Part shown: piece by piece, positions 4,397-48,019 of the stretch
Layout of the letters: every line of letters starts with the position of its first letter
How positions within the stretch are numbered: position 1 is the first letter of the stretch
NCBI GenBank assembly: GCA_964474705.1
Contig: CAYYUI010000004.1
Coordinates: 7,373 to 71,372 of the forward strand
Source: an uncultured bacterium
GTDB taxonomy: Bacteria > Muiribacteriota > Ozemobacteria > Ozemobacterales > Ozemobacteraceae
Reading direction: 5' to 3'
Length of the DNA stretch: 64,000 nt
Notes under the pieces: model-generated
The model's input: the letters and a program-made list of their open reading frames with translations, nothing else
Database searches by the model: none
Told to the model about the DNA's origin: nothing
Made by a program: the position numbers and the translations under genes

Positions 4397-5800
4397 ATGA
4401 AACGTATTTTGCTATTCCTTTTCACGTATCTTGCGATTCTGCCAACTGTGGCAGGAGCCGCATCTGCAACCATAGATGACAGGTTGACAGCCATAGAAGC
4501 CAGAATGGCCGCCATGCAGATTAATTACGAACAACAGATCGCCTCTCTGACCCAGCAATTGAATGCTTTAAAACTGGTGGCATCAGCAACCCCATTGTCA
4601 TGTGAGACAGACGAACTGGCAGCCTTGAAAGCCGCCGCTGCCAGCGAAATGAAAACTGCTGAAACCAGCAGCTCGTCACAGCAGAATGATTCTGAAAGAA
4701 CATTCATTGCCGGCGATCTGAGTCGCCAGGCAGAAAACCCGGAACTCAGTGTGGTAGGAGATTTTGTTTACCGCCTGCAAAGCATCGACAACGTGCGCAA
4801 CAACTCAGACGCCATGATGCGCAATCTTGGAGTTCATTACGAAACGTATCTCGATCCTTATACCAAATTCAAAGGTGCTGTACCGGTCAAAGAAGATATT
4901 TCTAATCTTGGGGAAGCCTATATAACCAGATTTGGCGTCACCCGCAACCTGAATTTCACGATCGGTAAATTCCGACAGCAATTTGGCGTCGTACATCGCT
5001 GGCATCAGGCGGGTTTAGATCAGGTCGACTTCCCATTAGCCATGCGCCGGGTTCTTGGTGATGGTGGCATTGTCCAGAATGGTATCGCACTTGACTGGCA
5101 GCTTGGCGGTTCAGGCAGAACAACCCATGAACTGACCATGCAATTAACCGAATCGACCAACGCACGTCTTTTTTCCGGCAACACCAGAGGTATGCCTGCG
5201 ATGCTGCTGCATTTCAAGGCATTCAAGGACGTAGATACCGATACTTACCATGAAATCGGGCTGACAACCATGGCCGGCATAAACGATCAATGGTCGATAA
5301 AAAATGGTGCCACCGTTGGCACCCGTGACCTGAATCGACCGGTTTTTGCTTTTGGCCTTGATTTCACCCACCTATGGGAACCGGCTGACAATATGCGCTA
5401 TCGCAATTTCCTCTGGAGAAGCGAATTTTACGGCGTCAGAAAAGACATTCTTACCCCGGACACCGGCAACAAAGACAGCATTTTCGCATGGGGAGGCTAT
5501 ACCAACCTGCAATGGAAACTCGACCGTCAGCTTTCATCAGGTTTTCGTTTCGACTATTTCGAACCGGACAGCCAAAAATACGCTGCTGTGCCAGGCTTGT
5601 CGCTTTATCCCCTGGCAGTAGTCGCGCAAAGCCCCAGCGAGTGGCAATTGTGCCCTTATCTGACCTGGGAACAAAGCCCCTGGGTGAAGTATCGGCTTGA
5701 ATTCAACTATAAATCAGGCAACAACATGGGTCCCGACGAACGCCGGGTTATGCTGCAATGCATCTGGTCTGCCGGCCCACATAAACATGACCGCTATTGA
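4397..5800 (+). CDS. outer-membrane beta-barrel (porin-like) protein with N-terminal coiled coil
   Basis: Signal peptide MKRILLFLFTYLAILPTVAGAASA and a coiled segment (IEARMAAMQINYEQQIASLTQQLNALK). An alternating amphipathic C-terminal region ends in an aromatic residue (..HDRY). Confidence 0.6.
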   Translation: MKRILLFLFTYLAILPTVAGAASATIDDRLTAIEARMAAMQINYEQQIASLTQQLNALKLVASATPLSCETDELAALKAAAASEMKTAETSSSSQQNDSERTFIAGDLSRQAENPELSVVGDFVYRLQSIDNVRNNSDAMMRNLGVHYETYLDPYTKFKGAVPVKEDISNLGEAYITRFGVTRNLNFTIGKFRQQFGVVHRWHQAGLDQVDFPLAMRRVLGDGGIVQNGIALDWQLGGSGRTTHELTMQLTESTNARLFSGNTRGMPAMLLHFKAFKDVDTDTYHEIGLTTMAGINDQWSIKNGATVGTRDLNRPVFAFGLDFTHLWEPADNMRYRNFLWRSEFYGVRKDILTPDTGNKDSIFAWGGYTNLQWKLDRQLSSGFRFDYFEPDSQKYAAVPGLSLYPLAVVAQSPSEWQLCPYLTWEQSPWVKYRLEFNYKSGNNMGPDERRVMLQCIWSAGPHKHDRY

Positions 5801-5819
5801 AATCAGGAGACAGTTATTT

Positions 5820-6944
5820 ATGCTGAACGCTATATTTCCATTTCACTCAAGTTGTGACCAGGCAAACTGCTTCAGCAGAAGCAAACTCACATTTTTAAGA
5901 ACGATTGCTCTGATCCTGCTTTTGGCCTGCAGTATCTCGCCGACCTGTTCCGCACCGTTAAGAGTGGTAACCACACTGCCCGATTACGCCTATCTGGCCA
6001 GCAGAATAGGCGGCCATCTCGTTGAAGTTAAAGCCATGGTCGATGGCAGCCAGGATGCTCATTTCATAAGACCCAAACCTTCATTCGTCGAAATTCTCAG
6101 AAACGCCGATCTATTGATAGCAACCGGCCTGGATCTTGAAATGTGGTTACCGGCAGCTGTTGACAAGTCCGGCAATCACCGCATAAGAAGCGGAGAACCT
6201 GGTTATGTCGCAACCGCTTCCGGAATGAATCTTAAAGACAAACCGGTCGCCCTGTCACACATTGAAGGCGGACTGCATCTGTATGGCAACCCTCATGTAA
6301 CAGTCAGTGCAATCAACATCATTCAGGCAATCGACAATATAAGGGTCGGCCTGAGCCGCAATCTTGCAGTCAGCAAAGAAACCATAAATCAGAACGCCGC
6401 CAGACTGACGGCTGACATTTGCAGACAACTCTATGGTGAAGAATTAATAACCATGCTCGGTCAGGACACCCTGCTTGATCTGCATAAAAGCGGCAAACTG
6501 CTGAACTTTCTCGAGCAGAAACAATTCAAAGGCAAACCCCTCGCCGGGTATGCAGGGGGATGGCTAGGAAAACTCCTGCCGCTGCGCGGTACCCGCATCG
6601 TCAGCTATCATAAAAACTGGCTTTATCTTTTCAACGACTTCGGTCTACTCGAGGGAGGCTTCATCGAGCCCAAGCCAGGTATTCCACCCTCGCCCAGGCA
6701 TCTCGCTGAGCTAAAAAAGAATATGAAGGAACAGAATGTCCGTCTGATCATATCAGCAGATTACTTTGACGAAAAAACGGTTCAGCAACTGGCTGCCGAT
6801 ACCGGAGCAATAGCGACCATGCTGCCATATTATGTCGGCGGCCGGCCAGAAATCGACACATGGGAAAAGCTCATGGATTTCTGGGTAAACAGCATTGCCG
6901 AAAGTGCCCGTCATGCGGGTATAACCGGCGCAAATTCTAAATGA
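5820..6944 (+). CDS. metal (Zn/Mn-type) ABC transporter substrate-binding protein, ZnuA/TroA family
   Basis: AGGAGA RBS before the ATG at 5820. LRVVTTLPDYAYLASRIGG..DAHFIRPKPS..LHLYGNPHV is typical of cluster A-I binding proteins. The longer track ORF from 5697 overlaps the porin gene. Confidence 0.85.
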   Translation: MLNAIFPFHSSCDQANCFSRSKLTFLRTIALILLLACSISPTCSAPLRVVTTLPDYAYLASRIGGHLVEVKAMVDGSQDAHFIRPKPSFVEILRNADLLIATGLDLEMWLPAAVDKSGNHRIRSGEPGYVATASGMNLKDKPVALSHIEGGLHLYGNPHVTVSAINIIQAIDNIRVGLSRNLAVSKETINQNAARLTADICRQLYGEELITMLGQDTLLDLHKSGKLLNFLEQKQFKGKPLAGYAGGWLGKLLPLRGTRIVSYHKNWLYLFNDFGLLEGGFIEPKPGIPPSPRHLAELKKNMKEQNVRLIISADYFDEKTVQQLAADTGAIATMLPYYVGGRPEIDTWEKLMDFWVNSIAESARHAGITGANSK

Positions 6945-7660
6945 ACAGCGAACAGACAATTATCAAATGCACTGATCTGGCCGTAGGTTACGATGGCGAA
7001 GCGGTTCTTTCCGGCATCAATCTTGAGATACGGCGAGGTGACTTTCTGCCATTCTCAGGCCCGAACGGTTCTGGAAAAACCACTCTGTTGCGCACGATTC
7101 TTGGTTTATTACAACCGGTCCGCGGCGAATTGCATCACCCATTTGCCAAAAAACCGCCTGGTTATGTGCCGCAGATTTCAACTCTCGACAGGCTGTACCC
7201 GGTAACTGCCAGAGAAGTGGTCTGCATGGGCTTTTATCCAGAGCTTGGCCTGTGGAAACAGCCCACTTCTGAAATGCAGAAACTGGTAGACGGTTATCTA
7301 GAACGTTTCAATCTCTCCAGGCACTCATCACGACCACTTGACGAGCTTTCCGGAGGTATGCGTCAGAAAGTTCTTATCGCCAGAGCCCTGGTTAGCGGAG
7401 CCGAAGTTCTGATCATGGATGAACCGGCAGCCGGTCTCGACGAACAGTCAGAATTCGATCTGGTCAGGCTTCTATACCAGCTGGCGGAACATGACAACAA
7501 AACAGTTCTATTTGCTCAGCACAGTCTTGAACCGATCATTGGCCTGGCAGACGAAGTTATCAGCTTCGCAGCCGGGCAGACAAAAAGAACCAGTCTTAGT
7601 GAACTGCTGCAAAGAAGACATATTCATAACAGTCGGGATAAAACAGATGTTCAATCATGA
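6941..7660 (+). CDS. metal ABC transporter ATP-binding protein
   Basis: Walker A GPNGSGKTT, signature LSGGMRQK and Walker B VLIMDEP. ATGA overlap with the upstream gene. Confidence 0.9.
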   Translation: MNSEQTIIKCTDLAVGYDGEAVLSGINLEIRRGDFLPFSGPNGSGKTTLLRTILGLLQPVRGELHHPFAKKPPGYVPQISTLDRLYPVTAREVVCMGFYPELGLWKQPTSEMQKLVDGYLERFNLSRHSSRPLDELSGGMRQKVLIARALVSGAEVLIMDEPAAGLDEQSEFDLVRLLYQLAEHDNKTVLFAQHSLEPIIGLADEVISFAAGQTKRTSLSELLQRRHIHNSRDKTDVQS

Positions 7661-8876
7661 CAGCATCGCCTCGGTCATAAGCATTTATGGGGGAGCATTA
7701 CCGGCCGCGTTTCTGATGGCAGTGACTTTTGCCATCTTCGGCATGTTTGTAGTTCTAAAAAAAATGGTATTCATCGGGGTGACCCTTTCAGAGGTGGCTG
7801 CCTGCGGGGTTGCTCTGGCGCTGATCTATGAATTGCCGCCGTTTGTCGGGGCTGCTCTTCTGTGTCTTTTCGTAGTCGCGATTCTGGCATACCCGTATGA
7901 GCACGCCAACCTTCCCCGCGATACCATTCTGGGAACGATATTCATTTTCGCTTCCGGAATGGGCATTCTGCTGGTGGCCCACAGTGGTTTCGGGCTTGAA
8001 AAGGTTAAAGCCATTCTGTATGGAAACCTTCTTTTTGCTTCATCAGCAGACCTCATAACCATTGCCGCCGTCATGCTGCCGTCTCTGCTGGCACTATTCG
8101 TCTTTTACAGGCCAATACTGTATTCGTTCCTTGATCGCGAATCTTCAATCACTCTCGGAATCAACGTCTGGCACTATGAACTGCTGTTTTTCATACTGCT
8201 TGGGCTTATTGTCGCCTCGGCATCACGTATTGCCGGAGTAATGCTTGTCTTCTGCTATCTTGTCATTCCGGCGGCAACAGCATTGCTTTTATCCCGGCAC
8301 CTTCTAGCGGGCATGATTATTGCAACAATTATGGCTATCGTCTCTACCATTCTTGGAATAATGACTTCCTACCAGGCAGATTTGCCACCAAATCAGCTGA
8401 TAGCTGTCATTTCAAGCTGCATGCTCGTCATTGCCATGTTCTATCGAAAATGTCGCAGCAGTTTTTCCAGGCCGGGCGCATTGGTAGTAGCCGGCACAAT
8501 ATTTCTGGCGCTGTTTTTGTTCCTCAACAGTCTGCATCCGGCAGCCGAAATTGCTTCAGCTGCCGATTTTTCGACCCTGCCTCTCCAGGAAAAACCCGCA
8601 GTAGAGATACAGCCTCAGACTGAATGTAATCTGCCACACGACTGGGCAACAATTACCGAAAACCTGGAAAAAGCGCTTATGAACGACAAAAAAGATGCAG
8701 TCAGGAACGCTGTCGAAACCCTCAAATCAAATCCACCGCCTTTTTTCTGCACTGCAATTGTCGAGATGATAAAACAAAAGACTGGCCGATCATTCGACTG
8801 GGACTACGATCTCCCCGCAAACTCGGAAAAGAATCTTCAGACATTGCATAAATTGGCTGAAGAACTGAAATTGTGA
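7647..8876 (+). CDS. metal ABC transporter permease (ABC-3 family) with about 135-aa C-terminal extension
   Basis: Multi-TM core starting MFNHDSIASVISIYGGALPAAFLMAV. The start was chosen at the ATG at 7647, which overlaps the ATPase stop. The tail after about 8445 adds one TM helix and a soluble domain. Confidence 0.8.
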   Translation: MFNHDSIASVISIYGGALPAAFLMAVTFAIFGMFVVLKKMVFIGVTLSEVAACGVALALIYELPPFVGAALLCLFVVAILAYPYEHANLPRDTILGTIFIFASGMGILLVAHSGFGLEKVKAILYGNLLFASSADLITIAAVMLPSLLALFVFYRPILYSFLDRESSITLGINVWHYELLFFILLGLIVASASRIAGVMLVFCYLVIPAATALLLSRHLLAGMIIATIMAIVSTILGIMTSYQADLPPNQLIAVISSCMLVIAMFYRKCRSSFSRPGALVVAGTIFLALFLFLNSLHPAAEIASAADFSTLPLQEKPAVEIQPQTECNLPHDWATITENLEKALMNDKKDAVRNAVETLKSNPPPFFCTAIVEMIKQKTGRSFDWDYDLPANSEKNLQTLHKLAEELKL

Positions 8877-8926
8877 TTTTTCACGCTAAAGTCTGCTTCC
8901 AGATTGTCTGCAAGCGGCCTGGCAGA

Positions 8927-9730
8927 TCAGACAGCAAATTCTATAGTTCGTCCTGAAAATACCTCTTCGCATCTGAACCTTATATGAAAGAGACTGATGA
9001 CCGAAGCATCGACGCAATGGCAGGGCATTAACAGACCAGGCTTAAGCTGTTCGAAAAAAGCAAATGTCTCATCGATGATCCCGCTGTCTTCCTTGATATG
9101 AAAACCGCCGATAACTGCAACCACCTTGTCGACACCGGTCACACGCCGGGCGTGCTCGATAATGTTGCATATGCCTGAATGCGCGCAACCAGAAATCACC
9201 AGTAAACCCTCAGATGTAGTAATTGCCAGGCCCGAATCATCAGAAACGAAGTCAGGCTGATCATTCTCGTTCTTGAAAGTGGTGGTTCTGGCTTCAAAGT
9301 CGTTCAATCTGGGTATCTGCCCCAGAAACACCACATTTTCACTGACTTTATAAGGCTCAGAGCTCAGAATCAGATCGAAGGCAGACTCAGCATGCTGCTG
9401 GTCATAATTCAGGCCAATATAAACCGAACCCTTTTCGCGATATCTTTTGATAAAACAACCAGGATGGCAGAGCAAAGGTCGTTTTGTCAGGTGGAAAAAG
9501 CCATTGCCATGATCGTAATGCCCATGACTAAGTATTGCAATAGGGGCAGAGTCAACATTTATACCAAGCAAGCCGGCATTTTCAAGAAAGAGGCGACTCT
9601 GACCAGAATCAAATAGAATATTCTGCCCGGCTTCAATAAACATTGAAAGGCCATGTTCGCCTCCACAGCCATTTCCTGGATTGTTATCAACGAGAAAAGT
9701 TATTCTGATTTTATTCTGAGCCGCGTTCAT
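8927..9730 (-). CDS. MBL-fold metallo-hydrolase
   Basis: HGHYDHGNG metal-binding motif, with later CAHSG and PCHC motifs. Its start overlaps the upstream stop by 4 nt. Confidence 0.8.
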   Translation of the reverse strand: MNAAQNKIRITFLVDNNPGNGCGGEHGLSMFIEAGQNILFDSGQSRLFLENAGLLGINVDSAPIAILSHGHYDHGNGFFHLTKRPLLCHPGCFIKRYREKGSVYIGLNYDQQHAESAFDLILSSEPYKVSENVVFLGQIPRLNDFEARTTTFKNENDQPDFVSDDSGLAITTSEGLLVISGCAHSGICNIIEHARRVTGVDKVVAVIGGFHIKEDSGIIDETFAFFEQLKPGLLMPCHCVDASVISLFHIRFRCEEVFSGRTIEFAV

Positions 9731-10557: not shown

Positions 10558-11206
10558 CACTGCCGCAGTATCCGCCTTCGCAGCTGCTGCAGGAACCGCC
10601 TTCACAACCAGAACCAGCTTCGGAATTCAGATCCTGCATTGTCTGGTTGATGATCTCGTTACTGAGATCCTGGCCGCTTTTCAAACCGTCTTCAAGAGCC
10701 TGATCAGCTGTCTGACCGGCTTCCTGTAAAGCTTTTTCAGTGAGCTGTCTGCCCATATCCAGACCCTGTTTTGTGGCCTCATCAGCGACTTTCAGACTCT
10801 GCTCGACTACCTTGCCGGTGAATTCGCTGGTCTGCTTGAGAATATCGCCAACCTGAGCGTTGATATCTTTGAGAAGAACATCTATCATTTTGCCGCTGTC
10901 ACCATGTGATTTTACAAGCAGGCTTTTTACCTGTTCATCAACTGCTTCGATGGCCTTTTTAACCTGTTCATCGTTACCGCCGAGCGATTTACCGATCACT
11001 CCTTCAAGGTGGCTTTTCATGGTATCCACAACCAATCGGGTGGCCTGATCGTTAGTGTCGTTGGTCAATTGCGCCAGTTTGGTCACATTCGCCAGAATCG
11101 GCGCCGCAACCTCATCTGCAGTTCCGGTAATTTCGGCCGAAAGTGGCGATACCAAAATTCCAAAAGCCATAACCATACCAGCAAAATTCCTGACTATTTT
11201 ATTCAT
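10550..11206 (-). CDS. secreted helical-repeat protein with Cys-rich C-terminal tail
   Basis: AGGTGG RBS before the ATG at 11206. Signal peptide MNKIVRNFAGMVMAFGILVSPLSA, a long Lys/Glu/Gln-rich helical region, and the tail GSGCEGGSCSSCEGGYCGSDD. Confidence 0.6.
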   Translation of the reverse strand: MNKIVRNFAGMVMAFGILVSPLSAEITGTADEVAAPILANVTKLAQLTNDTNDQATRLVVDTMKSHLEGVIGKSLGGNDEQVKKAIEAVDEQVKSLLVKSHGDSGKMIDVLLKDINAQVGDILKQTSEFTGKVVEQSLKVADEATKQGLDMGRQLTEKALQEAGQTADQALEDGLKSGQDLSNEIINQTMQDLNSEAGSGCEGGSCSSCEGGYCGSDD

Positions 11207-11818
11207 AGATTCCACCTTGTTCAGATTTCAACAGAACTCAGAAATCATACCTGTACAAATGCCAACCAGGCAAGCCCAACCCAGAATTTGTCAAATCATT
11301 GAATCTGTCAAAAGTTAAATAGAGTCTGTTCTACAACCCGTCTTCTCTCCGGGCCTGTTGATCGTTTTTTAGAGAGGGCTTAATTATTGATAAACAGAAT
11401 TAAAACAGATTTTATTGCCCCTTTGCGAAGAATACTCCAGGCGTGGACAGAAGGCGGGGTTACTTTTTCGGAAGCTTGTTTTGCACAGTATGTGCACATG
11501 CAGAACCGCGCAGGACAGAGCGGTTCTGCTCAGCGAAACGTTTTGCCGAAGGCAAAGGCCAGGTCTGAGCAAATCGCTGTAGGCCTGACAGCATATTTTC
11601 TGATGGTATCGAGTATCGCTGACATCCTGTCAGCAAAAAAGTATTTAAGCAGGAAACTTTTTTGTCGCGTGAGCCAGAAGAGTGGCGAGCGACGCCCGAC
11701 TGATAGTCGCGCTGGCCTTTATAACCGACACTTGTTTTACTGGACTCAATAATACAGTCATTAAAAAGCAGCTATCAACATGGTTCTGTTGCGGGCAAAA
11801 TGCCTTATGAAGATAAAA

Positions 11819-39019: not shown

Positions 39020-40252
39020 TCAGCCTTTTATGACGCCGAGCGGGCGCAATTTTACGACCGGTTCGACAAGGTCTCGCTGGCTGGCCATGACGGTATCGAT
39101 ATCTTTGTAGGCCTGTGGCGCCTCACCGAAGTCGAAAGTTTCGCCCTTCTTTTTGCCGTACCCGCGAGCTTTTTGCCAGCGATCGAAGACGATGCCTTCC
39201 ATAGCGCGATTACATTCTTCGAGCGTCAGGTTGCGACTGGCCTCTTTGCGGCCCATACGGCGCCCGGCGCCATGCGAACAGGAAGTGAACGACTCAGGGT
39301 TACCGAGTCCACGCACGATATAAGAGAAAGCGCCCATGCTTCCCGGAATGATGCCAAGCTGGTCTTTGCGCGCCGAGGTCGCCCCTTTGCGATGTACCCA
39401 GAAGTTGCGGCCAAAATGATTCTCGAGGGCCGCGTAGTTGTGATGAATGTTGATCTCTTCGATAAATCCGATTCCAGGAAACAGCTCCAGCATCACTTTC
39501 TTGAAGGCGGCCATCATGCGGGCACGGTTTTCAAGAGCATAGCGCAGGGCAAAATTCATGTCGCGAATGTAATTGCGGCCTTCATCGGCATCAGAAGGCA
39601 GAAATGCCAGATCGCGGTTCGGTATGCCGGCGTGCCATTTCTCGTTGAGCGCGAAAGCCAGTTTGTGATAATGGGCGGCGATGCGATAACCCAGATTGCG
39701 CGAACCTGAATGCAGCATCATCCAGACCAGGCCATCTTCGTCGGCCTGCAGTTCGATAAAGTGGTTGCCACCACCCAGGGTGCCCAGATTTTTGCGGTCA
39801 TGGTTCAGATGATCGCGGTCGAACCAGTCTGGCATTTTGTCGCCAAGCTCGGCTTCGTAGGCGGCAAAGCCTTCCCATTCCTGGGCAAAACGATGGCTGT
39901 TGCCTTCGCCAACCGGAACCAGCTTTTTCACCCCGGCAAGAATTGCCCTGATCTGCTCTTTATCGCCAAGCTCGTCGACCATGATGCTGGTTTTCACCGC
40001 ACCCATGCCGCATCCGATATCGACGCCAACCGCATTCGGAATAACCGATTCACGGCAGGCAATTACCCCGCCGATCGGCATGCCGTAACCGACATGGCAG
40101 TCTGGCATAAGAGCCACATGCAGATCGACTGACGGGTGCGAAGCCAGATCGGCTGCCTGTTTCAGAGCATCCGGCTCCAGTTCGGCACACCATGATTTGA
40201 TCGCTATACGCGCATCTGGTGAGATGCTTTTTTTATCTTTTATCCATTCCAT
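39020..40252 (-). CDS. rtcB: RNA-splicing ligase RtcB
   Basis: MPDCHVGYGMPIGGV, GVDIGCGM, GGGNHFIE, GSRNLG and SCSHGAGR motifs. Confidence 0.95.
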   Translation of the reverse strand: MEWIKDKKSISPDARIAIKSWCAELEPDALKQAADLASHPSVDLHVALMPDCHVGYGMPIGGVIACRESVIPNAVGVDIGCGMGAVKTSIMVDELGDKEQIRAILAGVKKLVPVGEGNSHRFAQEWEGFAAYEAELGDKMPDWFDRDHLNHDRKNLGTLGGGNHFIELQADEDGLVWMMLHSGSRNLGYRIAAHYHKLAFALNEKWHAGIPNRDLAFLPSDADEGRNYIRDMNFALRYALENRARMMAAFKKVMLELFPGIGFIEEINIHHNYAALENHFGRNFWVHRKGATSARKDQLGIIPGSMGAFSYIVRGLGNPESFTSCSHGAGRRMGRKEASRNLTLEECNRAMEGIVFDRWQKARGYGKKKGETFDFGEAPQAYKDIDTVMASQRDLVEPVVKLRPLGVIKG

Positions 40253-40454: not shown

Positions 40455-41480
40455 TCAGCCCTGCAAAGAAGACAGTTCGATTTTCCAGAGCTGTTCATCC
40501 AGTCTGGTGATTGAAAAATCGACCGGCAGAAAAAGTTTGATTACCTGCAGATTGGTCTTGGTATGCAGTGAAGGTTCGGTTGTCGTGAAACTGCCACCTC
40601 CGGCAAGTGCCATCGGAATCAGTATCTGGTCAGCAAGATACTCATCCACCGCCGCCTGCGATTTTACGAAGCGGTTGGCGCCAACACTGGCAATATGAGC
40701 CACCTTGCGGCGCGACACGCCCAGTTCGCCAAAGCCGGTGAACATGACCGAACCGTGCTGAAAGTCAACTCTGACCATCGCCACATTTCCCGGCCCGACG
40801 GAATCGACGGTAATCGCCCGCCTCCTGCTGACCGGAAACCTTACCGACTTCACGATCGCCAGGCTTTCGTCTTCGGCGATTTCCCAGGGAATCTTCGACA
40901 CGGCCGCCAGAACTTCGGCTCCGAGCATGTCTCCTGATCGGCACAGGTCGAGGCGGTTCGGTTTGCCGAAAGGCACTACTTTGACCTCGACCCGGCCGCC
41001 ACCGGCCGGATAAAAGCCCCAGGTTTTCAATTCAGCAGAACATTGGCCGCCAAATCTGTTAACCATAGGCAGAAAAACTTCGGAAATATAATGAAAGGTC
41101 GGCGACAGAGGGTTATGAGTGCCACCTTCAAGAACTACAGTCGAAGAAGCAGGTGCCATCAGCAGCGGCGGCAGAACCGTCTGCAGCACCAGCATGGCGC
41201 TGCCGGCACTGCCAACCGCGAAATGGTAGTCATCGTCTTGAACGAAGCCAGGCTTGAATACCAGATGTTGCGAAGAGATATCATCGCCACTGATCTCTGC
41301 CGAGCAGATTTCACGGGCAGCATGCACACAAGTGAGATGCTGCCGCATCAACCCTGGTTTCCTGCGTTTCGATCTGATGTTTTCGATGGTAAATGCCTTG
41401 CCGGTGCAGACAGACAATGCCAGTGCCGTGCGCAATACCTGGCCGCCACCTTCCCCCATCGACCCGTCGATTCTGATCAT
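40455..41480 (-). CDS. rtcA: RNA 3'-terminal phosphate cyclase RtcA
   Basis: IDGSMGEGGGQVLRTALALS..RKPGLMRQHL and the overall length (341 aa). Confidence 0.92.
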   Translation of the reverse strand: MIRIDGSMGEGGGQVLRTALALSVCTGKAFTIENIRSKRRKPGLMRQHLTCVHAAREICSAEISGDDISSQHLVFKPGFVQDDDYHFAVGSAGSAMLVLQTVLPPLLMAPASSTVVLEGGTHNPLSPTFHYISEVFLPMVNRFGGQCSAELKTWGFYPAGGGRVEVKVVPFGKPNRLDLCRSGDMLGAEVLAAVSKIPWEIAEDESLAIVKSVRFPVSRRRAITVDSVGPGNVAMVRVDFQHGSVMFTGFGELGVSRRKVAHIASVGANRFVKSQAAVDEYLADQILIPMALAGGGSFTTTEPSLHTKTNLQVIKLFLPVDFSITRLDEQLWKIELSSLQG

Positions 41481-41555: not shown

Positions 41556-42653
41556 TCAGAGCATGTTGACAAGCTTTTCAGTCAGGCCCTTTTCGCCGAG
41601 AACCAGTTTGAGGGTAGATTTTTCGGCAACTTTTTCAATGAGTTCAAGTTCACGCAGGCGCATCAAAGTCGGGTTGCCTTCGAGCATTCTGGCGGTATTG
41701 CACTGACTTCTGGTCGCGGCGGTTTCTTCACGTCTGATGATCTGGTTTGCTTCGGCTTCTTTCTGCGCAGCGACGACCCGGTTCATGATTTCTCGCATCT
41801 TGCCAGGCAGAATAATATCTTTGATACCGAAACCGCATACTTCGATGCCGTAGTTTTGTGCCTTAGCTTTCAGAGCAGCCGAAATTTCTTCAGCGAGCTG
41901 ATCCTTGGCAGCCAACATTTCATCGATCTTGCGGGCCCCGACAACGGTGCGCATGATCAACTGACATTCGCGATACAGAGCTGTTTCTGCCGCTTCACAG
42001 ACTGAGACTGATTTCAGAGCATCGACGATCCTGAAATTAGCAACCGCATTCAGGCGCAGGCTGACTTTGTCGGCAGTGATGATTTCCTGGCCCGAAAGAT
42101 CGAGAACCTTCTCCTTTTTACTGACGGTAACGAACTTCAGAGCCGAAATATTTTTCCAGAAAGCATAGAACCCGGGCTGTAATTCTTCGACGAATCTGCC
42201 GTCTCTGAAATACACACAGGTTTCACCCTGTTCGACCTGAACGGCTTCGAGAAGCTCTTTGGCAATCGGCGCTTTGCCGATCCTGAAGAGCTGGCGGTGT
42301 TCAAAACGCGGGTCTTCGACAGTCAATTCTTCGACACGCACATTTTTCTGAGTCTTCCAGATCAGCTGCCGGCCGACCCCAAGAAGAGTGTAGAAACGAT
42401 CGTCGAGCCAGACAATCGCGCGCTGGCTGTCTTTAAGATCGACAACGACGACACGGTCGTTCAGCAGGCCGGAACTGGCAATCTGGTCGATTTCTTCATG
42501 CCAGACGAACAGGTCTTTCTCACGCAGAACATCGATGGTTTCGCCGACAATGGTTCTGGCGAGATACCAGCCGGGTTTGAGAACTTCGATGAGCTTGCCG
42601 TTTCTGAAGCGCAAACCGGTTTCTGCATTCTTAACCCTGACGATTCTGATCAT
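41556..42653 (-). CDS. SPFH/band-7 (slipin-like) protein with duplicated N-terminal lead-in and no obvious TM helix
   Basis: AAGGAG RBS before the ATG at 42653. The SPFH core is ..ITADKVSLRLNAVANFRIVD..IKDIILPGKMREIMNRVVAAQKEAEA. The track ORF start at 42785 has no RBS. Confidence 0.85.
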   Translation of the reverse strand: MIRIVRVKNAETGLRFRNGKLIEVLKPGWYLARTIVGETIDVLREKDLFVWHEEIDQIASSGLLNDRVVVVDLKDSQRAIVWLDDRFYTLLGVGRQLIWKTQKNVRVEELTVEDPRFEHRQLFRIGKAPIAKELLEAVQVEQGETCVYFRDGRFVEELQPGFYAFWKNISALKFVTVSKKEKVLDLSGQEIITADKVSLRLNAVANFRIVDALKSVSVCEAAETALYRECQLIMRTVVGARKIDEMLAAKDQLAEEISAALKAKAQNYGIEVCGFGIKDIILPGKMREIMNRVVAAQKEAEANQIIRREETAATRSQCNTARMLEGNPTLMRLRELELIEKVAEKSTLKLVLGEKGLTEKLVNML

Positions 42654-43006
42654 ATTTATCTCCTTTTCAACCGCTGCGCGGCTGCTGAATTTCAGTGCCC
42701 TCGGAACATCCGGTTCATCTGCCAGTCGGGCAACGATGGAGTCAGCTTGAGTCAGATGCGTTCCCCGTTGCCTTCTCTCCTGCATCTGCTGGAAAGATGC
42801 CTGCGGGGCCCGGCAATCTGACGGTATCTGCTGCCTGCATGATCGCTGCTGCGACTACCCGATTCAACCGATCATTCAATGTCTCCGCCGGCCCGGAATC
42901 CCCTGGATTCCTGCTGCTGCGGCTGCGTCGTCTCTACGGACCGGCCGGCTCAGGCCCGGCACCTTACCCGGTGTTCTTCAGGCTAAGACTGCTTTGTTAA
43001 GCAGTG

Positions 43007-43079
43007 AGGCTGGAACAGGATTCGAACCTGCTACTCATGGCTGACAAGGCCATTGCTCTACCATATGAGCTATCCAGGT
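43007..43079 (-). ncRNA. tRNA-Thr(UGU)-shaped element with defective acceptor end (tRNA mimic or pseudo-tRNA)
   Basis: The reverse strand folds as ACCTGGA-TA-GCTC-ATATGGTA-GAGC-A-ATGGC-CTTGTCA-GCCAT-GAGTA-GCAGG-TTCGAAT-CCTGT-TCCAGCC-T. U8, A14, G18G19, A21, the TTCGAAT T-loop and all D, anticodon and T stems are intact. But 1:72 is A/C, 2:71 is C/C, position 37 is C, and no CCA is encoded. Confidence 0.6.
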
Positions 43080-43167
43080 GTCTGTATCGCCTTCAAAGCA
43101 GGCCCGGCATACCCTTTGCCCACGGGCGGGCACCGACCTGGTCGAATCAACAGACATCTATGTATAT

Positions 43168-43183
43168 TGCAACGACCATGCCA
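43168..43183 (-). promoter_or_regulatory. sigma54 (-24/-12) promoter of the rtc operon
   Basis: The reverse strand reads TGGCAT-GGTCG-TTGCA with consensus spacing. The predicted start near 43157 is about 78 nt upstream of the tRNA-like element and about 500 nt upstream of the SPFH start codon. Confidence 0.7.
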
Positions 43184-43302
43184 ACCTTGAAAAAACAGCA
43201 AAAACTGCATCAGCAAACGATCACAGCCCAACCTCTCGAAATTTTTGCCCGAATAATTTATATTGTTTATTATATTTTATATACTATAATATACTTTAGT
43301 GA

Positions 43303-43607: not shown

Positions 43608-43708
43608 ACTGGCATGTCGTCTGAGCAAATGGCTATTCTCAGCAGCGTTTAATCATCTCGCACAGGCTGGCAGATTCGAGCGAGGTGAGACTGACAGGAG
43701 ACAGGCAT

Positions 43709-45328
43709 ATGAGAAAAAAGAATGTAGTAATTGGCTTTCTCGGCACCGTTCTCGACCGGCGTGGCAAACAGAATCGCTGGGAAAACTGGCGCCCTTCGGT
43801 TGCCGTCTGCCAGCACGAAGACCTGCTGATCGACAGATTTCATCTGCTGTGCAGTCACCGCGACGTTTCACTCGCTGATCAGGTAAAAGCCGATATTGCT
43901 GCCATTTCGCCTGAAACAGAAGTAAAGATTGAATTCGTCGAGTTTAAAAACCCCTGGGATTTCGAGGAAGTCTTTTCCGGGATGCTCGACTATTCACACC
44001 AGTACAAGTTCAAAGAGAATGAAGAATATCTGATGCATATCACCACCGGCACCCACGTCACCCAGATATGCACCTTTCTCCTCACCGAAGCCGGCTTTTT
44101 TCCGGGCAAACTGTTGCAGACCGGCCCGGGCCGACACAATTCCCCACCCGGCAGTTACGAAATCATCGATCTCGACCTGTCGAGATACGACAGCATCGCC
44201 CGTCGGTTCGCCCAGCAGACGGTAGACGATATTTCATTTCTCAAATCCGGCATAAAAACCCGCAACCCGCATTTCAACGCCCTGATCGCCGAAGTCGAAA
44301 AAGTCACCCTGCGCAGCGACATGCCGATTATGCTTTCAGGGCCAACTGGTGCCGGGAAATCCAGGCTGGCGCGACAGATATTCGAACTGCGGCGGCAGCA
44401 CAACAGAATCAAAGGCAGGTTTATCGAAGTTAACTGCGCCACTCTGCGTGGTGATATGGCAATGTCGGTGCTGTTCGGCCACAAAAAGGGTGCCTTCACC
44501 GGTGCAACCGAGAATCGCGATGGTCTGCTCAAGACAGCCAACGGCGGCATTCTCTTTCTCGATGAGATCGGCGAACTTGGTCTCGACGAACAGGCGATGC
44601 TGCTGCGCGCTATCGAAGAAAAAGTTTATCTGCCGGTAGGCTCTGACAAAGAAGTTAACAGCGACTTTCAGCTGATAACCGGCACCAACCGAAATCTTCG
44701 TGATGAATGCCGTGCCGGTCGTTTCAGACAAGACCTGCTGGCCCGCATAAAATTCTGGGAATTCACCATTCCGGGTCTCAAAGACAGGCCCGAAGATATC
44801 GAACCGAACATCGACTTTGAACTGCAGCAGCACTCAAAACGGCTTGGCGAACCGGTCGGCTTCAGCAGTGAAGCTCGTCAGCGGTTCACAAGCTTCGCGA
44901 CATCGGCAGAAGCACTCTGGACCGCGAATTTTCGCGACCTCAACAGCTCACTGACCCGCATGATCACCTTATCTGAAGGGCACCGAATCGGCACAACCGA
45001 AGTCGAACAGGAAATACGTAAACTTCAGAACGGCTGGGGCCAGGAAAGTAACGGCGAGAACGGGCAATCTAGATTGATTGCTGCGCTTCTGTCGCCAGAA
45101 ACTCTTGCCGGTCTCGATCTTTTCGATCGCATACAACTTGAAAAGGTTCTGGAAATCTGCCTTGTCTGTGACAGTATGGCCGAGGCCGGCCGCCGCCTGT
45201 TCGGCAATTCGATACGCAACAAGCAGTCGAGCAACGATTCAGACCGGCTGCGAAAATATCTGCAGCGCTTCGGCATCAGCTGGAAAAACATTGCCGGCGC
45301 TGCAAACACAGCTTCAGCTGACCTCTGA
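43709..45328 (+). CDS. rtcR: sigma54-dependent activator RtcR (CARF-type N-terminal domain, AAA+, HTH)
   Basis: MRKKNVVIGFLGTVLDRRGK..RWENWRPSV..HITTGTHV is RtcR-like. Walker A GPTGAGKS and the GAFTGA loop are present. The gene is divergent from rtcA/rtcB. Confidence 0.9.
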   Translation: MRKKNVVIGFLGTVLDRRGKQNRWENWRPSVAVCQHEDLLIDRFHLLCSHRDVSLADQVKADIAAISPETEVKIEFVEFKNPWDFEEVFSGMLDYSHQYKFKENEEYLMHITTGTHVTQICTFLLTEAGFFPGKLLQTGPGRHNSPPGSYEIIDLDLSRYDSIARRFAQQTVDDISFLKSGIKTRNPHFNALIAEVEKVTLRSDMPIMLSGPTGAGKSRLARQIFELRRQHNRIKGRFIEVNCATLRGDMAMSVLFGHKKGAFTGATENRDGLLKTANGGILFLDEIGELGLDEQAMLLRAIEEKVYLPVGSDKEVNSDFQLITGTNRNLRDECRAGRFRQDLLARIKFWEFTIPGLKDRPEDIEPNIDFELQQHSKRLGEPVGFSSEARQRFTSFATSAEALWTANFRDLNSSLTRMITLSEGHRIGTTEVEQEIRKLQNGWGQESNGENGQSRLIAALLSPETLAGLDLFDRIQLEKVLEICLVCDSMAEAGRRLFGNSIRNKQSSNDSDRLRKYLQRFGISWKNIAGAANTASADL

Positions 45329-45409: not shown

Positions 45410-46774
45410 TCAGTTCGAGAATTCCTTGCCGAGCATGACCACGGTTTTAACGAAGTTGTAGCGGGCCGGGTTGATCTCTTTCAGATAGGCCGGGGTAGCG
45501 TAATACATCACTGCTGCCTGAGTCATATCGACATAGGCATCGTAGGTCGTCATGTTCTTGTCGAAAGTGGTTTTCCATTTGGTGGTGACTTCAGGGTGAA
45601 AATACAGAAACCGCAGGGTCATCTCGCGGATGAGGGTCTGTTTGAAACGCTTGCCCCTGGCGGCATCATCGAGAGTCGAAAACGATGGCATGAACCAGGA
45701 ATTCTGGGTAATGAAAACGAAACCCTCTGATGAAAAGGCCGTTTCGGTATCAGTAGTCGGCACGTAAGCGATCGCTTCGGTACAGGTCGAGAAAAACTTC
45801 GGCAGTTCGGCAAACAGTTCGGCAATGGCGCTGCGCAACAGTTCAGGTGCTTCTTTATAGCTGGCCGGCAGATTAGCTGAAGCGGTTCCAACATCGACCT
45901 GAGTGACGATCGGCATATAATCACCGTCAGGAATCGCAGGCGGCGGGCGGGTTGCCGGAATTTCGACATTGCCGCCGGGATTGTCGTTGCCGCCGGTTGT
46001 CGTGGTATCACTGGCGACCGAAGGGTTTGTCCAGCCGGTTACCGTCTGGTTATTCATCACCATCGTTTTGACAAAATCATAGCGGCTCTTGTATTTGCTC
46101 TGCAGGTTGGAGGCTTCTGTGCAGTACATCGAAACAGCGAACGCCAGATCAACCCAGGCAGCGGTTTTGCCTGGAGCCGTAACCATGTTGATTTCGGCCG
46201 CCGGGCCGTAAACCTTGACCGGCAGCTTAGACTGGGCGGCAATACTGGCATACTTCTTCGCAATTTCGGGGTGTTCCTGGAGGAAGCCGTAAGTCATACC
46301 TCTGACCAGAATGGTTTTAAAACGATTGACCAGCTGGGTATCGGTTGGGGTGGTTTTATAAACCTCTTTGAAGCGTCTGATGAAGATGACCGACGGTGTC
46401 ATGACCCCGGCTCCGATCTGAACGATACCATGTTGATCATTGAAGCCGACATATTTTACTTCATATTGAACCGGTGACGGATCAAGGAAAACCATACGTG
46501 TCGAAGCCGTAAAACTGGCAGGGAGAGCGGCAAGAACATCCTTGATCGCCTGAACGTAACTCAGGCTCCACTGGTTCTGGTTTTCGGCCTGATCTTCGGC
46601 GACGACTACGTCATATTTTGCACTGATCGAGTCTTTCAGAGCAGTCAGAGCATCGGTGCCGGTAGCTACTTCGAGAGTCTGGTAAACTGAATCGAGATAA
46701 CTGGCATTCTGTGCCCTGACGGGAACAACCAGCAGCGTTGCGCACAGAACGAACAGAGCGATCAGCTTTTTCAT
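45410..46774 (-). CDS. secreted protein made of two tandem inactive copies of the adjacent zincin-like domain
   Basis: Signal peptide. The segments FKTILVRGMTYGF..SRYDFVKTMVM and FKQTLIREMTLRF..ARYNFVKTVVMLGKEF align with FKRTLVHEMTHCF..NRYNFIKQYVMDGKEY of the gene at 46787, but both His of HExxH are replaced. Confidence 0.6.
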   Translation of the reverse strand: MKKLIALFVLCATLLVVPVRAQNASYLDSVYQTLEVATGTDALTALKDSISAKYDVVVAEDQAENQNQWSLSYVQAIKDVLAALPASFTASTRMVFLDPSPVQYEVKYVGFNDQHGIVQIGAGVMTPSVIFIRRFKEVYKTTPTDTQLVNRFKTILVRGMTYGFLQEHPEIAKKYASIAAQSKLPVKVYGPAAEINMVTAPGKTAAWVDLAFAVSMYCTEASNLQSKYKSRYDFVKTMVMNNQTVTGWTNPSVASDTTTTGGNDNPGGNVEIPATRPPPAIPDGDYMPIVTQVDVGTASANLPASYKEAPELLRSAIAELFAELPKFFSTCTEAIAYVPTTDTETAFSSEGFVFITQNSWFMPSFSTLDDAARGKRFKQTLIREMTLRFLYFHPEVTTKWKTTFDKNMTTYDAYVDMTQAAVMYYATPAYLKEINPARYNFVKTVVMLGKEFSN

Positions 46775-46786
46775 AGACTGATTCCT

Positions 46787-48019
46787 TTACTGCAGATATT
46801 CTTTGCCATCCATTACATACTGCTTGATGAAGTTGTAGCGGTTGAGATCCATGGTGGCGCCGCTTCTGGAAACGAACATGCCGTTTCTGATCGAGCCGCC
46901 GGTGTAATAGGTGGCTACTGATTCTGCCATGTCTTCAGCGGGCTGCGTACGGCCGTAGCCGGTCGGGCTGGTGCCGGACAGACGACCACCCGGCCAGAAT
47001 CTGCCTGCCCAGGCCTGGTAGACCTGCGGGTAGGTATTCTGAAAACAATGAGTCATTTCATGCACGAGAGTGCGTTTGAAATTATGCTTCAGATATGCCA
47101 TCTGTTCAGCCTGAGTGGGTGCGCGCCCGTAAGCTGCCACCATGGAATTGTAGGCATTCTGGGTCATCGACACGCTGAGGTCGAGCATGTGAACCTTGCG
47201 CTGCGGCACCATAACATAGGCTGAAGCACTTGGCGGAATAAAGGAAGCGTTCGGCTGCCCGTCACGATAAACGACATCGGTGCATTTTCTGAAGAATGAG
47301 GGCAGCTCGCTAAATGTTTCATTGGCGGCATTCAGCTGGTTGATGCTCCAGGAGCAGTTATTGGCACCATCGGTCAGACTGATGCCGTATTTGGCCAGAA
47401 CCGCCGCCCGCACCGCTTCTTTATCTGTTGCAGTACCGGTAGAAGTGGCGGTGGCAGTAGAGGTCGAAGTAGAGGTAGCCGTTGCCGTCGAAGTCGAAGT
47501 GGCGGTCGAGGTCGAGGTCGAAGTCGAAGTCGAAGTTGCGGTGGATGTAGACGTAGATGTGGCCGTGGATGTGGACGTAGAAGTTGCAGTGGCGGTAGAT
47601 GTAGAGGTCCTGGTGACTGTAGATGTAGAGGTTGTGGTTCTGGTAGCGGTAGAGGTCGAAGTGGCGGTGGCTGTCGGCTTGGGGAAAATGCGTTCGCAGG
47701 GGATGACGACAATGACGATGCGGGTGCCGCACATTCGGCCGGCAATGACGCGCATGATGCTGTTGATCACCGACTGCAGCTTTTCCATGGCTTTCTGCTG
47801 CGCCGGATCGCCGACCGGGTCAGGAACATCGACAACTTCCGGATTGTCGTCGGTGCCGGCATAGGAGGCTTCGGGCCTGTCGGTGATTACTGAAGTGCCG
47901 GAGTTGCCGGCGCGATAAATGGTGTCAAGATAACTTTCGCCTTGCGCCGTAACCGGCACTGCACCGGCCACGACAAACAAAACCGTGGCCAACAGCGCGA
48001 TCATCAGTCGTCTGTTCAT
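46787..48019 (-). CDS. secreted HExxH zincin-like metallopeptidase with long Thr/Ser/Ala linker
   Basis: Signal peptide, a linker of about 85 aa built of TSTSTAT-type repeats, then LVHEMTHCFQ plus a downstream PAEDMAES. Confidence 0.6.
   Translation of the reverse strand: MNRRLMIALLATVLFVVAGAVPVTAQGESYLDTIYRAGNSGTSVITDRPEASYAGTDDNPEVVDVPDPVGDPAQQKAMEKLQSVINSIMRVIAGRMCGTRIVIVVIPCERIFPKPTATATSTSTATRTTTSTSTVTRTSTSTATATSTSTSTATSTSTSTATSTSTSTSTSTATSTSTATATSTSTSTATATSTGTATDKEAVRAAVLAKYGISLTDGANNCSWSINQLNAANETFSELPSFFRKCTDVVYRDGQPNASFIPPSASAYVMVPQRKVHMLDLSVSMTQNAYNSMVAAYGRAPTQAEQMAYLKHNFKRTLVHEMTHCFQNTYPQVYQAWAGRFWPGGRLSGTSPTGYGRTQPAEDMAESVATYYTGGSIRNGMFVSRSGATMDLNRYNFIKQYVMDGKEYLQ

Follow-up and report, generated by a model that had tools for sequence, protein, structure and literature searches.

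How bacterial Rtc systems find the RNAs they repair, and for what reason an SPFH or Ro scaffold and a tRNA look-alike are found with many of them, is unresolved in the field. Both questions are raised by a locus in the 64 kb stretch of contig CAYYUI010000004.1 analyzed here (the window; positions are counted from its first letter). At this locus, genes for an SPFH/Band-7 protein, the RNA cyclase RtcA and the RNA ligase RtcB are preceded by a long leader, and this leader contains a 73-nt element with the fold of a tRNA and a damaged acceptor end (the mimic). Is this a tRNA, the relic of one, or an RNA kept for something other than decoding? The comparative data point to the last answer: the mimic and a second structured RNA adjoining it, the rod RNA, are conserved together upstream of SPFH genes, and their most likely role, with a probability of roughly 0.6, would be that of the RNA partner of an SPFH repair scaffold. 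The whole window was searched with ARAGORN and Rfam, and seven open reading frames (ORFs; the operon, hrpB and two neighboring ORFs of unassigned function among them) were scanned with protein profiles.

ARAGORN reported the mimic as tRNA-Thr(tgt) at 43006-43079 (-), its sole tRNA call in the window. The Rfam tRNA family RF00005, which matched at 43007-43079 (-) with 48 bits against a gathering score of 29, was the only family found; Y RNA models gave no match, either at the gathering score in the window or at E ≤ 10 in 42600-43200, and the tRNA family was the only one to pass in both searches. Exactly the pairs 1:72 and 2:71 are marked as non-canonical in the RF00005 alignment. Read directly, these are the mismatches A1/C72 and C2/C71, which leave an acceptor stem of 5 bp, and U8, A14, G18G19, A21 and the T arm GGTTCGAATCC are kept. 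The anticodon loop is CUUGUCA with the anticodon UGU, position 37 is a pyrimidine (C37) and CCA is not encoded. The features of a canonical decoding tRNA, namely a 7-bp acceptor stem including 1:72 and 2:71, an encoded CCA and a purine at position 37, are therefore all missing in the element. The original prediction, made from the letters of the window, is borne out as far as its description of the locus goes: the σ54 promoter facing the rtc genes and divergent from rtcR, the cloverleaf at 43079..43007 with anticodon TGT, its two terminal mismatches, pyrimidine 37, absent CCA and intact tertiary positions, the 6-bp hairpin behind it, the hairpin GGAATCC-AGG-GGATTCC further along the leader, and the SPFH-rtcA-rtcB operon with its divergent regulator were all recovered by direct reading, ARAGORN, RF00005 or Pfam and NF profile matches.

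For the comparison with relatives, 18 diverse SPFH homologues were aligned (A1) and 80 genome loci were fetched, mostly from Planctomycetota, the others from Rifleibacteriota, Desulfobacterales, Thermoanaerobaculia/Acidobacteriota, Hydrogenedentes and Omnitrophota. By its SPFH homologues, the window belongs to Candidatus Rifleibacteriota. In most of the 80 loci, ARAGORN detected tRNA genes that lie upstream of SPFH and on its strand; the proximal one, at a distance of 300-550 nt to the start of SPFH, is tRNA-like and its anticodon is unusual and differs between loci. Thirty-two proximal elements were aligned using MAFFT (A2), and the covariance model R1, in which the acceptor stem has 5 bp, served to search the window together with all 80 loci, 75 of which have at least 600 nt upstream. 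Matches of 61-89 bits on the SPFH strand were obtained upstream of SPFH in 70 of these 75 loci, which represent at least six phyla. The window element scores 78.4 bits under R1, compared to at most 71.1 bits for ordinary tRNAs in the 916 kb of related loci searched; as the window is part of the seed, its own score arises partly by construction, and similarly good scores are reached by about 40 orthologues that were not in the seed. The idea that scores separate mimics cleanly from ordinary tRNAs was rejected, since eight ordinary tRNAs with 62-71 bits overlap the lowest mimics with 61-65 bits.

The cloverleaf itself is maintained by covariation. In A2, 90.6% of the cells are paired, two-sided changes occur in 15 of the 21 pairs and none of 500 shuffles was as good; in slid controls, pairing dropped to 30-41%. 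Compensatory changes were found in all four stems, with covariation of the D, anticodon and T stems; the anticodon stem is 98% paired and shows 3-10 compensatory changes per pair. Positions forming tertiary contacts are invariant or nearly so.

The acceptor terminus and the anticodon loop are not maintained in this way. The R1 model alignment comprises 71 SPFH-linked elements, in 70 of which the acceptor pairs could be counted. Pairs 1:72 and 2:71 are formed in 14 and 18 elements, which is chance level (18.7 and 18.9 in shuffles); pairs 3:70 and 4:69 are formed in 36 and 46, above chance (22 and 29 in shuffles). Selection against pairing at 1:72 and 2:71 was considered as well and rejected, because pairing is at, not below, the chance level. 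In each of the eight ordinary tRNAs of the alignment, 1:72, 2:71 and 3:70 are all formed, a combination that is rare in the mimics. The anticodon loop has 7 nt in 63 of the 71 mimics, 6 nt in five and 8 nt in three; 27 different triplets occur across the family, and U33 is present in 40 of 63 elements. On a nearly identical body, the closest relatives of the window element (UGU) carry CAU (locus L003, SPFH identity to the window 87%) and AAU (locus L001, 62%), and the element is therefore neither an essential tRNA-Thr nor a recent pseudogene.

What the family keeps is the elbow formed by the D and T loops, the anticodon stem, the T arm and an acceptor stem of 3-5 bp. Selection thus acts on the body of the mimic and leaves its acceptor terminus and its anticodon free, and the mimic is not constrained as a decoder; since the body is kept while the anticodon loop and the two terminal acceptor pairs vary, the element would be recognized as a tRNA shape rather than read. 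The damaged acceptor end is a family trait arising from loss of constraint. In this respect the original prediction of a co-transcribed tRNA mimic, neither normal tRNA nor pseudogene, is supported by the family data, and so is its view that the defects do not reflect random decay, in that unpaired 1:72 and 2:71 are selected or tolerated family-wide. Covariation between orthologous regions preserves the body, the acceptor ends of the relatives are not perfectly paired either, and absence from related rtc loci, which would have spoken against a mimic, is contradicted by its presence in 70 of the 75 SPFH loci.

The roughly 330 nt between the mimic and SPFH had been taken for a generic GC-rich leader; they hold a conserved structured RNA instead. 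When this interval was aligned, conserved islands emerged across phyla, and RNAalifold (62 sequences) resolved three parts: P1, a long helix that closes the fold and holds a GA-rich internal loop; P2, a hairpin whose insert varies; and P3, which forms a long arm. The 52-pair consensus was scored on an independent, sequence-only MAFFT alignment of 61 sequences (A6). Here, 84.9% of the cells are paired (shuffles 72.4 ± 0.4%, slid controls 33-47%), two-sided, i.e., compensatory changes affect 48 of the 52 pairs (0/500 shuffles as good), the number of compensatory cells is 447 against 147 ± 12 in shuffles (0/500 as high) and the covariation score is 0.413 against 0.08-0.12 in slid controls.

Mimic and rod RNA occur in tandem. 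The rod RNA was found in 67 loci by a sequence profile, and in 63 of the 73 mimic-bearing loci, where the profile detects it, it begins 10-95 nt 3' of the mimic. Six held-out loci (L012, L017, L019, L020, L050 and L060) have both RNAs 1-4 kb upstream of SPFH, and in L026 rtcB lies between the two RNAs and SPFH. For a check starting from the RNA, metagenomes were scanned for a 19-nt motif of P3. The mimic was present 119-257 nt upstream of the motif in 62 of the 73 loci with room upstream, and SPFH downstream of it in 53 of the 63 loci with room downstream; the residual loci mostly have neither mimic nor SPFH, as expected from chance 19-mer matches. A search of Rfam 15 at E ≤ 10 returned nothing credible for either 42600-43200 of the window or 5350-6050 of the Adhaeretor mobilis locus L043, and no literature tying SPFH/Band-7 proteins to such an RNA motif was found. 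With a length of about 290 nt, the rod RNA is both structured and conserved; it is in no catalogue searched and may be new. An intrinsic terminator was tried as a general feature of the rod and is only partly true: a run of ≥ 4 T comes after the rod in 25 of 61 loci, and about half of the loci have a T-rich tract behind P1; neither is present in the window or in L003.

The copy in the window deserves separate consideration. The region 42686-42990 folds with a minimum free energy (MFE) of -128.5 kcal/mol (z -3.46) and with the closing helix GCCU..GAACACCGG / CCGGAUGUUC..GGGC; when placed in A6, most P3-arm pairs form and the middle of P1 fits poorly. The sequence-only profile works well within Planctomycetota and weakly here (3.6 bits in the window and 13.5 bits in L003, with a maximum of 1.4 bits in 550 shuffles), and a profile built from Rifleibacteriota only had no match outside that phylum. 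A covariance model of the P3 arm was built without any Rifleibacteriota sequence (alignment A7, model R2). It gave 40-103 bits for held-out Planctomycetota, 35.9 bits for L034 (Omnitrophota) and 29.7 bits for L003 (E 1e-5, at the expected place). In the window it gave 13.8 bits (E 0.37) at 42723-42856 (-), exactly the expected place. As the leaders of the window and L003 align directly, L003 matches R2 and the position agrees, the window leader was accepted in the rod family by transitivity; this membership is weaker than that of the Planctomycetota copies and less secure than that of the other phyla.

In the window the order is 5' hairpin, mimic, small hairpin, rod RNA of about 290 nt and the SPFH-rtcA-rtcB coding region (window coordinates in the table). 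The mimic starts about 78 nt downstream of the predicted start of the σ54 promoter, and the SPFH start is reached 353 nt beyond the mimic on the same strand. When 42984-43157 was folded (MFE), the basal helix of the 5' leader, UGUCUGU/ACAGACA, came to abut position 1 of the mimic; compared within the phylum, the stem-loop is kept in the Rifleibacteriota relatives, L001 showing a compensatory change from U-A to G-C. Equivalents of the trailer hairpin occur in L003 and L001 and, as GCAGG-N7-CCTGC, in Planctomycetota. The rod RNA fills nearly the whole interval up to the ribosome-binding site of SPFH, AAGGAG, 7 nt ahead of the ATG. Consequently, the untranslated RNA of about 500 nt is almost entirely structured.

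Table. Positions of the features discussed, in the window and, in the last three lines, in loci of relatives.
Feature	Position	Strand	Basis or remark
σ54 -24/-12 promoter TGGCATGGTCGTTGCA	43183-43168	(-)	read directly; faces the tRNA mimic and the rtc genes
5' leader stem-loop	43079..43156	(-)	between predicted σ54 start and mimic; MFE fold of 42984-43157
b7a-type tRNA mimic	43007..43079	(-)	ARAGORN, Rfam, R1 covariance model
6-bp trailer hairpin CTGCTT-AACA-AAGCAG	42989..43004	(-)	directly 3' of the mimic
Structured 'rod' RNA, helices P1/P2/P3	42697..42983	(-)	fold and family covariation
SPFH/Band-7 ('slipin') gene, 365 aa	41556..42653	(-)	Pfam Band_7, E 2.3e-33
rtcA, RNA 3'-terminal phosphate cyclase	40455..41480	(-)	Pfam RTC, 1.2e-80; NF003246, 403.6 bits
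rtcB, RNA ligase	39020..40252	(-)	Pfam RtcB, 6.1e-109
rtcR, divergent σ54 activator with CARF-like RtcR domain	43685..45328	(+)	NF038308, 760 bits; Pfam RtcR and Sigma54_activat; ORF coordinates, the true start may fall a few codons further downstream
CCA-encoding mimics, listed examples	L009 5443-5527; L011 5466-5550; L012 5104-5188; L017 4379-4462; L050 1822-1906; L069 1717-1800		
tRNA-Cys(GCA) upstream of the mimic, examples	L014 5278-5351; L043 5247-5318; L011 5294-5366; L057 5310-5382		
Rod RNA, examples outside the window	L043 5567-5862; L007 5593-5949		

Further ORFs at the locus are hrpB (931 aa as called), which is convergent, and, just past rtcR, two ORFs of 454 and 410 aa at 45410-46774 (-) and 46787-48019 (-). 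Neither has a Pfam match, and the latter has a weak match to a serine-rich protein. A TROVE/Ro domain was not found among the seven ORFs scanned, to which the search for TROVE was confined.

The regulatory setting differs between loci. Upstream regions were scanned for TGGCAY-N5-TTGCW, allowing one mismatch. A σ54 site 84-122 nt upstream of the mimic was found in the window, L001, L002, L003, L023 and L034, all of which have a divergent rtcR; no site was found in the loci without rtcR, the Planctomycetota loci included, nor in the rtcR-bearing L026 and L077. In most of the 80 genome loci rtcR was not detected by tblastn, and in most Planctomycetota loci tblastn found neither rtcA nor rtcB within the fetched flanks. 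Since dozens of Planctomycetota loci combine the RNAs and SPFH without detectable rtcR or σ54 promoter, a role in RtcR signaling cannot be general. RtcR/σ54 input is one among several regulatory contexts, and the suggestion in the original prediction that the element feeds a ligand forward to RtcR fails as a general function.

Another context is provided by L043, in which the order is rtcA, 30 tRNA genes, mimic, SPFH, RlaP, DUF1559, RlaP. The nucleotidyltransferase genes of the RlaP family (PF10127) are located 3' of SPFH at 7124-8140 and 8916-9680 (+), and they tie the module to the RlaP tRNA-repair enzymes, which have been characterized in Pseudomonas (PMC12776372). Arrays as in L043 are seen in several Planctomycetota (L004, L007, L009, L027, L028, L029, L031, L043, L052, L056 and others), where 20-40 same-strand tRNA genes directly precede the mimic, which forms the last unit of the array; on contig CAWDRV010000004.1, L004 and L007 are two such array-SPFH loci separated by about 50 kb. 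With or without an array, many Planctomycetota loci have a tRNA-Cys(GCA) with complete acceptor stem about 100-180 nt upstream of the mimic.

The mimic was also found in genome locus L081 and in two contigs from IMG/VR. The latter are classed as viral and carry mimic (L082 2472-2556 and L083 2462-2545), rod RNA and SPFH together, L082 having additional tRNA genes upstream of the mimic. Cluster P0094 was tried as the P. aeruginosa locus and discarded, as it proved to be an unrelated genome without rtc genes; mimic and rod RNA are nevertheless present in it. In the metagenome-assembled genome L023 (Desulfobacterales), about 1.1 kb downstream of rtcB, a tRNA-like match at 11203-11327 (+) forms both terminal acceptor pairs and has a 48-nt insertion at the position of the anticodon loop. 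Either this is a tRNA beside an RNA ligase operon that may be interrupted by an intron or in some other way, or the alignment has produced an artefact.

The homologues of the window SPFH have 365-368 aa, matching its own length. Its structure was modeled with AlphaFold2 (mean pLDDT 85.7), and an N-terminal transmembrane helix is not predicted. The model consists of three tandem five-stranded beta modules (residues 2-44, 68-111 and 135-178), an alpha/beta SPFH core, a 42-residue helix and a second helix. In a Foldseek search against the PDB, human stomatin ranked first (E 3e-15, 24% identity), followed by HflK/C, prohibitin, erlin and QmcA; the major vault protein (MVP) was hit with E values of 4e-10 to 3e-8 and gave by far the longest alignments (450-476 columns). 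This length suggests that the alignments with MVP extend into the N-terminal beta modules. Structures of stomatin, HflK/C, prohibitin and MVP have been solved as rings or cages. Judged by its model, the window SPFH probably forms a ring or a cage as well, and a cage may be soluble. The bacterial MVP homologues described in a preprint (10.1101/872010) are different, larger proteins, and RNA repair is not mentioned there.

Taken together, the proposal that the mimic and the adjoining rod RNA are the RNA partner of an SPFH repair scaffold draws on the identity of the mimic, its conservation and covariation, its loss of decoding constraint, its synteny with rod and SPFH, and the placement of the promoter. 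From these, we infer transcription and processing of the leader, oligomerization of SPFH, binding of the RNAs to it and an effect on repair. Upon activation of RtcR, the structured RNA would be made together with SPFH, RtcA and RtcB, the mimic being the first structured module after the 5' hairpin. Mimic and rod RNA would bind the SPFH oligomer, be it a ring or a cage, and the RNA would dock or organize damaged tRNA substrates and the enzymes that repair them, which are RtcB and RtcA here and RlaP in other taxa. The tRNA-shaped module might recruit or position tRNA-handling enzymes or substrates, as has been proposed for YrlA with Ro60. Strong comparative evidence supports the RNA, and the complex is suggested by analogy. 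As a bolder and rather doubtful extension, the bipartite RNA of about 400 nt (mimic, hairpin and three-helix rod) and the SPFH oligomer might constitute a cytoplasmic vault- or Ro-like ribonucleoprotein (RNP) which organizes tRNA repair by RtcB, RtcA and RlaP; the acceptor end would then be unpaired because the mimic is never excised or charged.

Several observations weigh against the SPFH partner role. CCA is encoded at positions 74-76 in 15 of 70 mimics, compared to 2.7 expected, and at least some members may mature like tRNAs and could resemble these in their biochemistry. Six of these 15 read CCACCA at positions 71-76, the degradation tag that is added to tRNAs with unstable acceptor stems. 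The oligomeric state of SPFH and its lack of membrane anchoring are themselves predictions from the model. In the passage of Wang et al. (bioRxiv 10.1101/312249) dealing with the b7a-tRNAs (band 7-associated tRNAs), the class to which the mimic is assigned below, it is described as being without experimental validation as of 2018. Finally, expression data exist for PA4581.1 ('tRNA-Arg4') of P. aeruginosa, which lies between rtcR (PA4581) and the genes PA4582 (SPFH, PaFlo8)-rtcB-PA4584 (RlaP)-rtcA (PMC13637947, PMC13086221, PMC12776372). Its RNA is detectable by qRT-PCR and its level is unchanged on induction of the Rtc proteins (PMC13637947). In RNA-seq data of a late cystic-fibrosis clinical isolate, PA4581.1 is up by a log2 of 4.9 (about 30-fold; adjusted p 4e-11), and PA4582 and rtcB are not significantly changed (PMC8743555, supplement file 3). 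This suggests that accumulation of the mimic need not depend on the ORFs downstream, and strict σ54 co-expression may accordingly not hold everywhere.

The same independence of PA4581.1 from its downstream genes would fit a tRNA shape that served as a processing signal, i.e., one kept only for the transcript to be cut by RNase P together with RNase Z or 3' exonucleases. As is known from tRNA punctuation and the MALAT1 mascRNA, such cuts would free or stabilize the rod RNA or the mRNA, and the excised piece itself would be functionless. The conserved elbow, T arm and acceptor-proximal pairs are the parts recognized by these enzymes, the anticodon loop would be free to vary, the Planctomycetota mimics end long tRNA arrays which must be processed, and the CCA-encoding subset fits as well. 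Yet the anticodon stem, which neither RNase P nor RNase Z needs, is almost fully paired by compensatory changes, the pairs nearest to the RNase P cleavage site are exactly those lost, and a near-obligate tie to one SPFH family across phyla would be unexpected of a generic processing signal, so that we regard this explanation as improbable. No better chance is given to the mimic acting as decoy, sentinel or ligand source, in which it would be cut by, or compete for, anticodon nucleases, with 2',3'-cyclic phosphate fragments feeding the CARF domain of RtcR. RtcR does respond to tRNA fragments or nicked tRNAs in Salmonella (PMC7790460, PMC10159003), in six loci the mimic comes first behind the RtcR-dependent promoter, the rapid change of its anticodon loop might stem from an arms race with nucleases, and operonic tRNAs have been suggested as sponges of toxin RNases for the Anabaena arrays (PMC8421152). 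The lack of detectable rtcR or σ54 promoter in most of the 80 loci makes this unsuitable as an ancestral or general role, and the analogous tRNA-like domain of YrlA is, according to the literature, not cleaved in Salmonella. The decoy or sentinel part of the original prediction is weakened by the anticodon loops, as the many that lack U33 (present in 40 of 63) or have 6 or 8 nt (8/71) are poor copies of nuclease targets; it retains a small probability.

Two simpler explanations fare worse. That the element is a true tRNA-Thr(UGU) held in reserve, which comes on with the repair operon in order to replace damaged tRNA as the tRNAs of long stress-induced arrays would, is largely refuted: although the element scores as a tRNA with ARAGORN and Rfam, Planctomycetota relatives have 20-40 apparently complete tRNA genes at the same position and L-arrays are co-regulated with rtcB in Anabaena (PMC8421152), the window mimic has a 5-bp acceptor stem, C37 and no CCA, its orthologues in L003 and L001 show other anticodons on the same body, and terminal pairs and anticodon are unconstrained in the family, whereas the true array tRNAs keep the terminal pairs and 3:70. 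Least probable of all is a recent tRNA pseudogene or functionless remnant of a lost array. The mismatched acceptor end, the missing CCA and the odd position 37 would suit such a relic, but it is refuted by the comparative data, namely the same position in at least six phyla, invariant tertiary contacts, compensatory changes in four stems and relatives that likewise are without a perfectly paired acceptor.

The locus and its relatives share a sharply defined module, made up of the mimic, whose acceptor stem has 3-5 bp, the covarying rod RNA of about 290 nt and SPFH, for which no transmembrane helix is predicted. It is present in culturable Rhodopirellula, Bremerella, Adhaeretor and Aeoliella and, as mimic and SPFH gene according to the literature, in P. 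aeruginosa. Should the RNAs bind SPFH, this would be the first RNA-binding role of the SPFH superfamily outside the vault, the Ro/Y RNA, vault and SPFH systems would be linked mechanistically, and a large structured RNA would join the short list of widespread bacterial non-coding RNAs (ncRNAs) without assigned function. Were the vault- or Ro-like RNP true as well, a large structured RNA family and a class of RNP would be added, both of them new and spread over at least six bacterial phyla. The mimic as such is not a new finding; possibly new are the tandem rod RNA and the picture of an SPFH ribonucleoprotein.

Among known systems, the eukaryotic vault (MVP, vault RNA and the TROVE protein TEP1) resembles the window SPFH in its beta repeats, SPFH 'shoulder' and long helix, and further in its association with small structured RNAs and in the parallel occurrence of TROVE and SPFH. 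MVP has nine beta modules compared to three in the window protein, which with 365 aa is much smaller, the identity is about 13% and, by E-value, the window SPFH is closest to stomatin and HflK/C; the vault is an analogy, and the window protein is not counted among its members. The L-arrays are operonic tRNA genes which are co-regulated with rtcB in Anabaena and lie near rtcB in other cyanobacteria (PMC8421152). Array tRNAs differ from the mimic by keeping the terminal acceptor pairs and standard anticodon loops, and the window has the mimic only and no array.

The Salmonella operon rsr-yrlBA-rtcBA, in which YrlA/YrlB act with Ro60 (Rsr), shares with the window a tRNA mimic accompanying RtcB and RtcA, control by RtcR/σ54 and a scaffold protein. 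The topology of YrlA is permuted, with the tRNA-like domain placed on the Ro-binding stem, whereas the cloverleaf in the window is linear; unlike that operon, the window has no TROVE protein in the seven ORFs scanned and no Y RNA model match at E ≤ 10. The separation from YrlA proposed originally is upheld on these grounds. Like the window element, PA4581.1 is a tRNA-like gene in the rtcR/rtc intergenic region, upstream of SPFH and without CCA, and it has atypical identity positions (PMC13637947, PMC13086221). It is annotated as Arg instead of Thr, the comparison being by published description and position, and this fits the unconstrained anticodon of the mimic family.

That the window element would be a different kind of mimic altogether, as had been supposed, does not hold, since it fits a class predicted in 2016, with PA4581.1 at the same position. 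The abstract of Burroughs and Aravind (Nucleic Acids Res 2016) reportedly speaks of SPFH/Band-7 modules with "a novel tRNA-like molecule", which is said to be the counterpart of Ro with Y RNAs. The 2016 prediction is taken up under the name b7a-tRNA in the account of Wang et al. 2018 (bioRxiv 10.1101/312249), according to which some bacteria encode RtcB beside a Band-7 protein and a predicted ncRNA very similar to a real tRNA, this RNA being occasionally swapped with YrlA and Band-7 with Rsr. Resemblance to tRNA, a Band-7/SPFH neighbor and an RtcB repair locus are common to the class and the window, and no defining feature differs. By its cloverleaf score, adjoining Band-7/SPFH gene, rtcA/rtcB locus and homology to elements at the same position, the window element is, as far as such sequence features define it, a member of the already predicted b7a-tRNA class and ordinary for it. 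Compared with the second-hand description of the 2016 paper, the class gains here the loss of 1:72 and 2:71, the free anticodon loop, the rod RNA of about 290 nt and, in loci with rtcR, a place directly behind a σ54 promoter.

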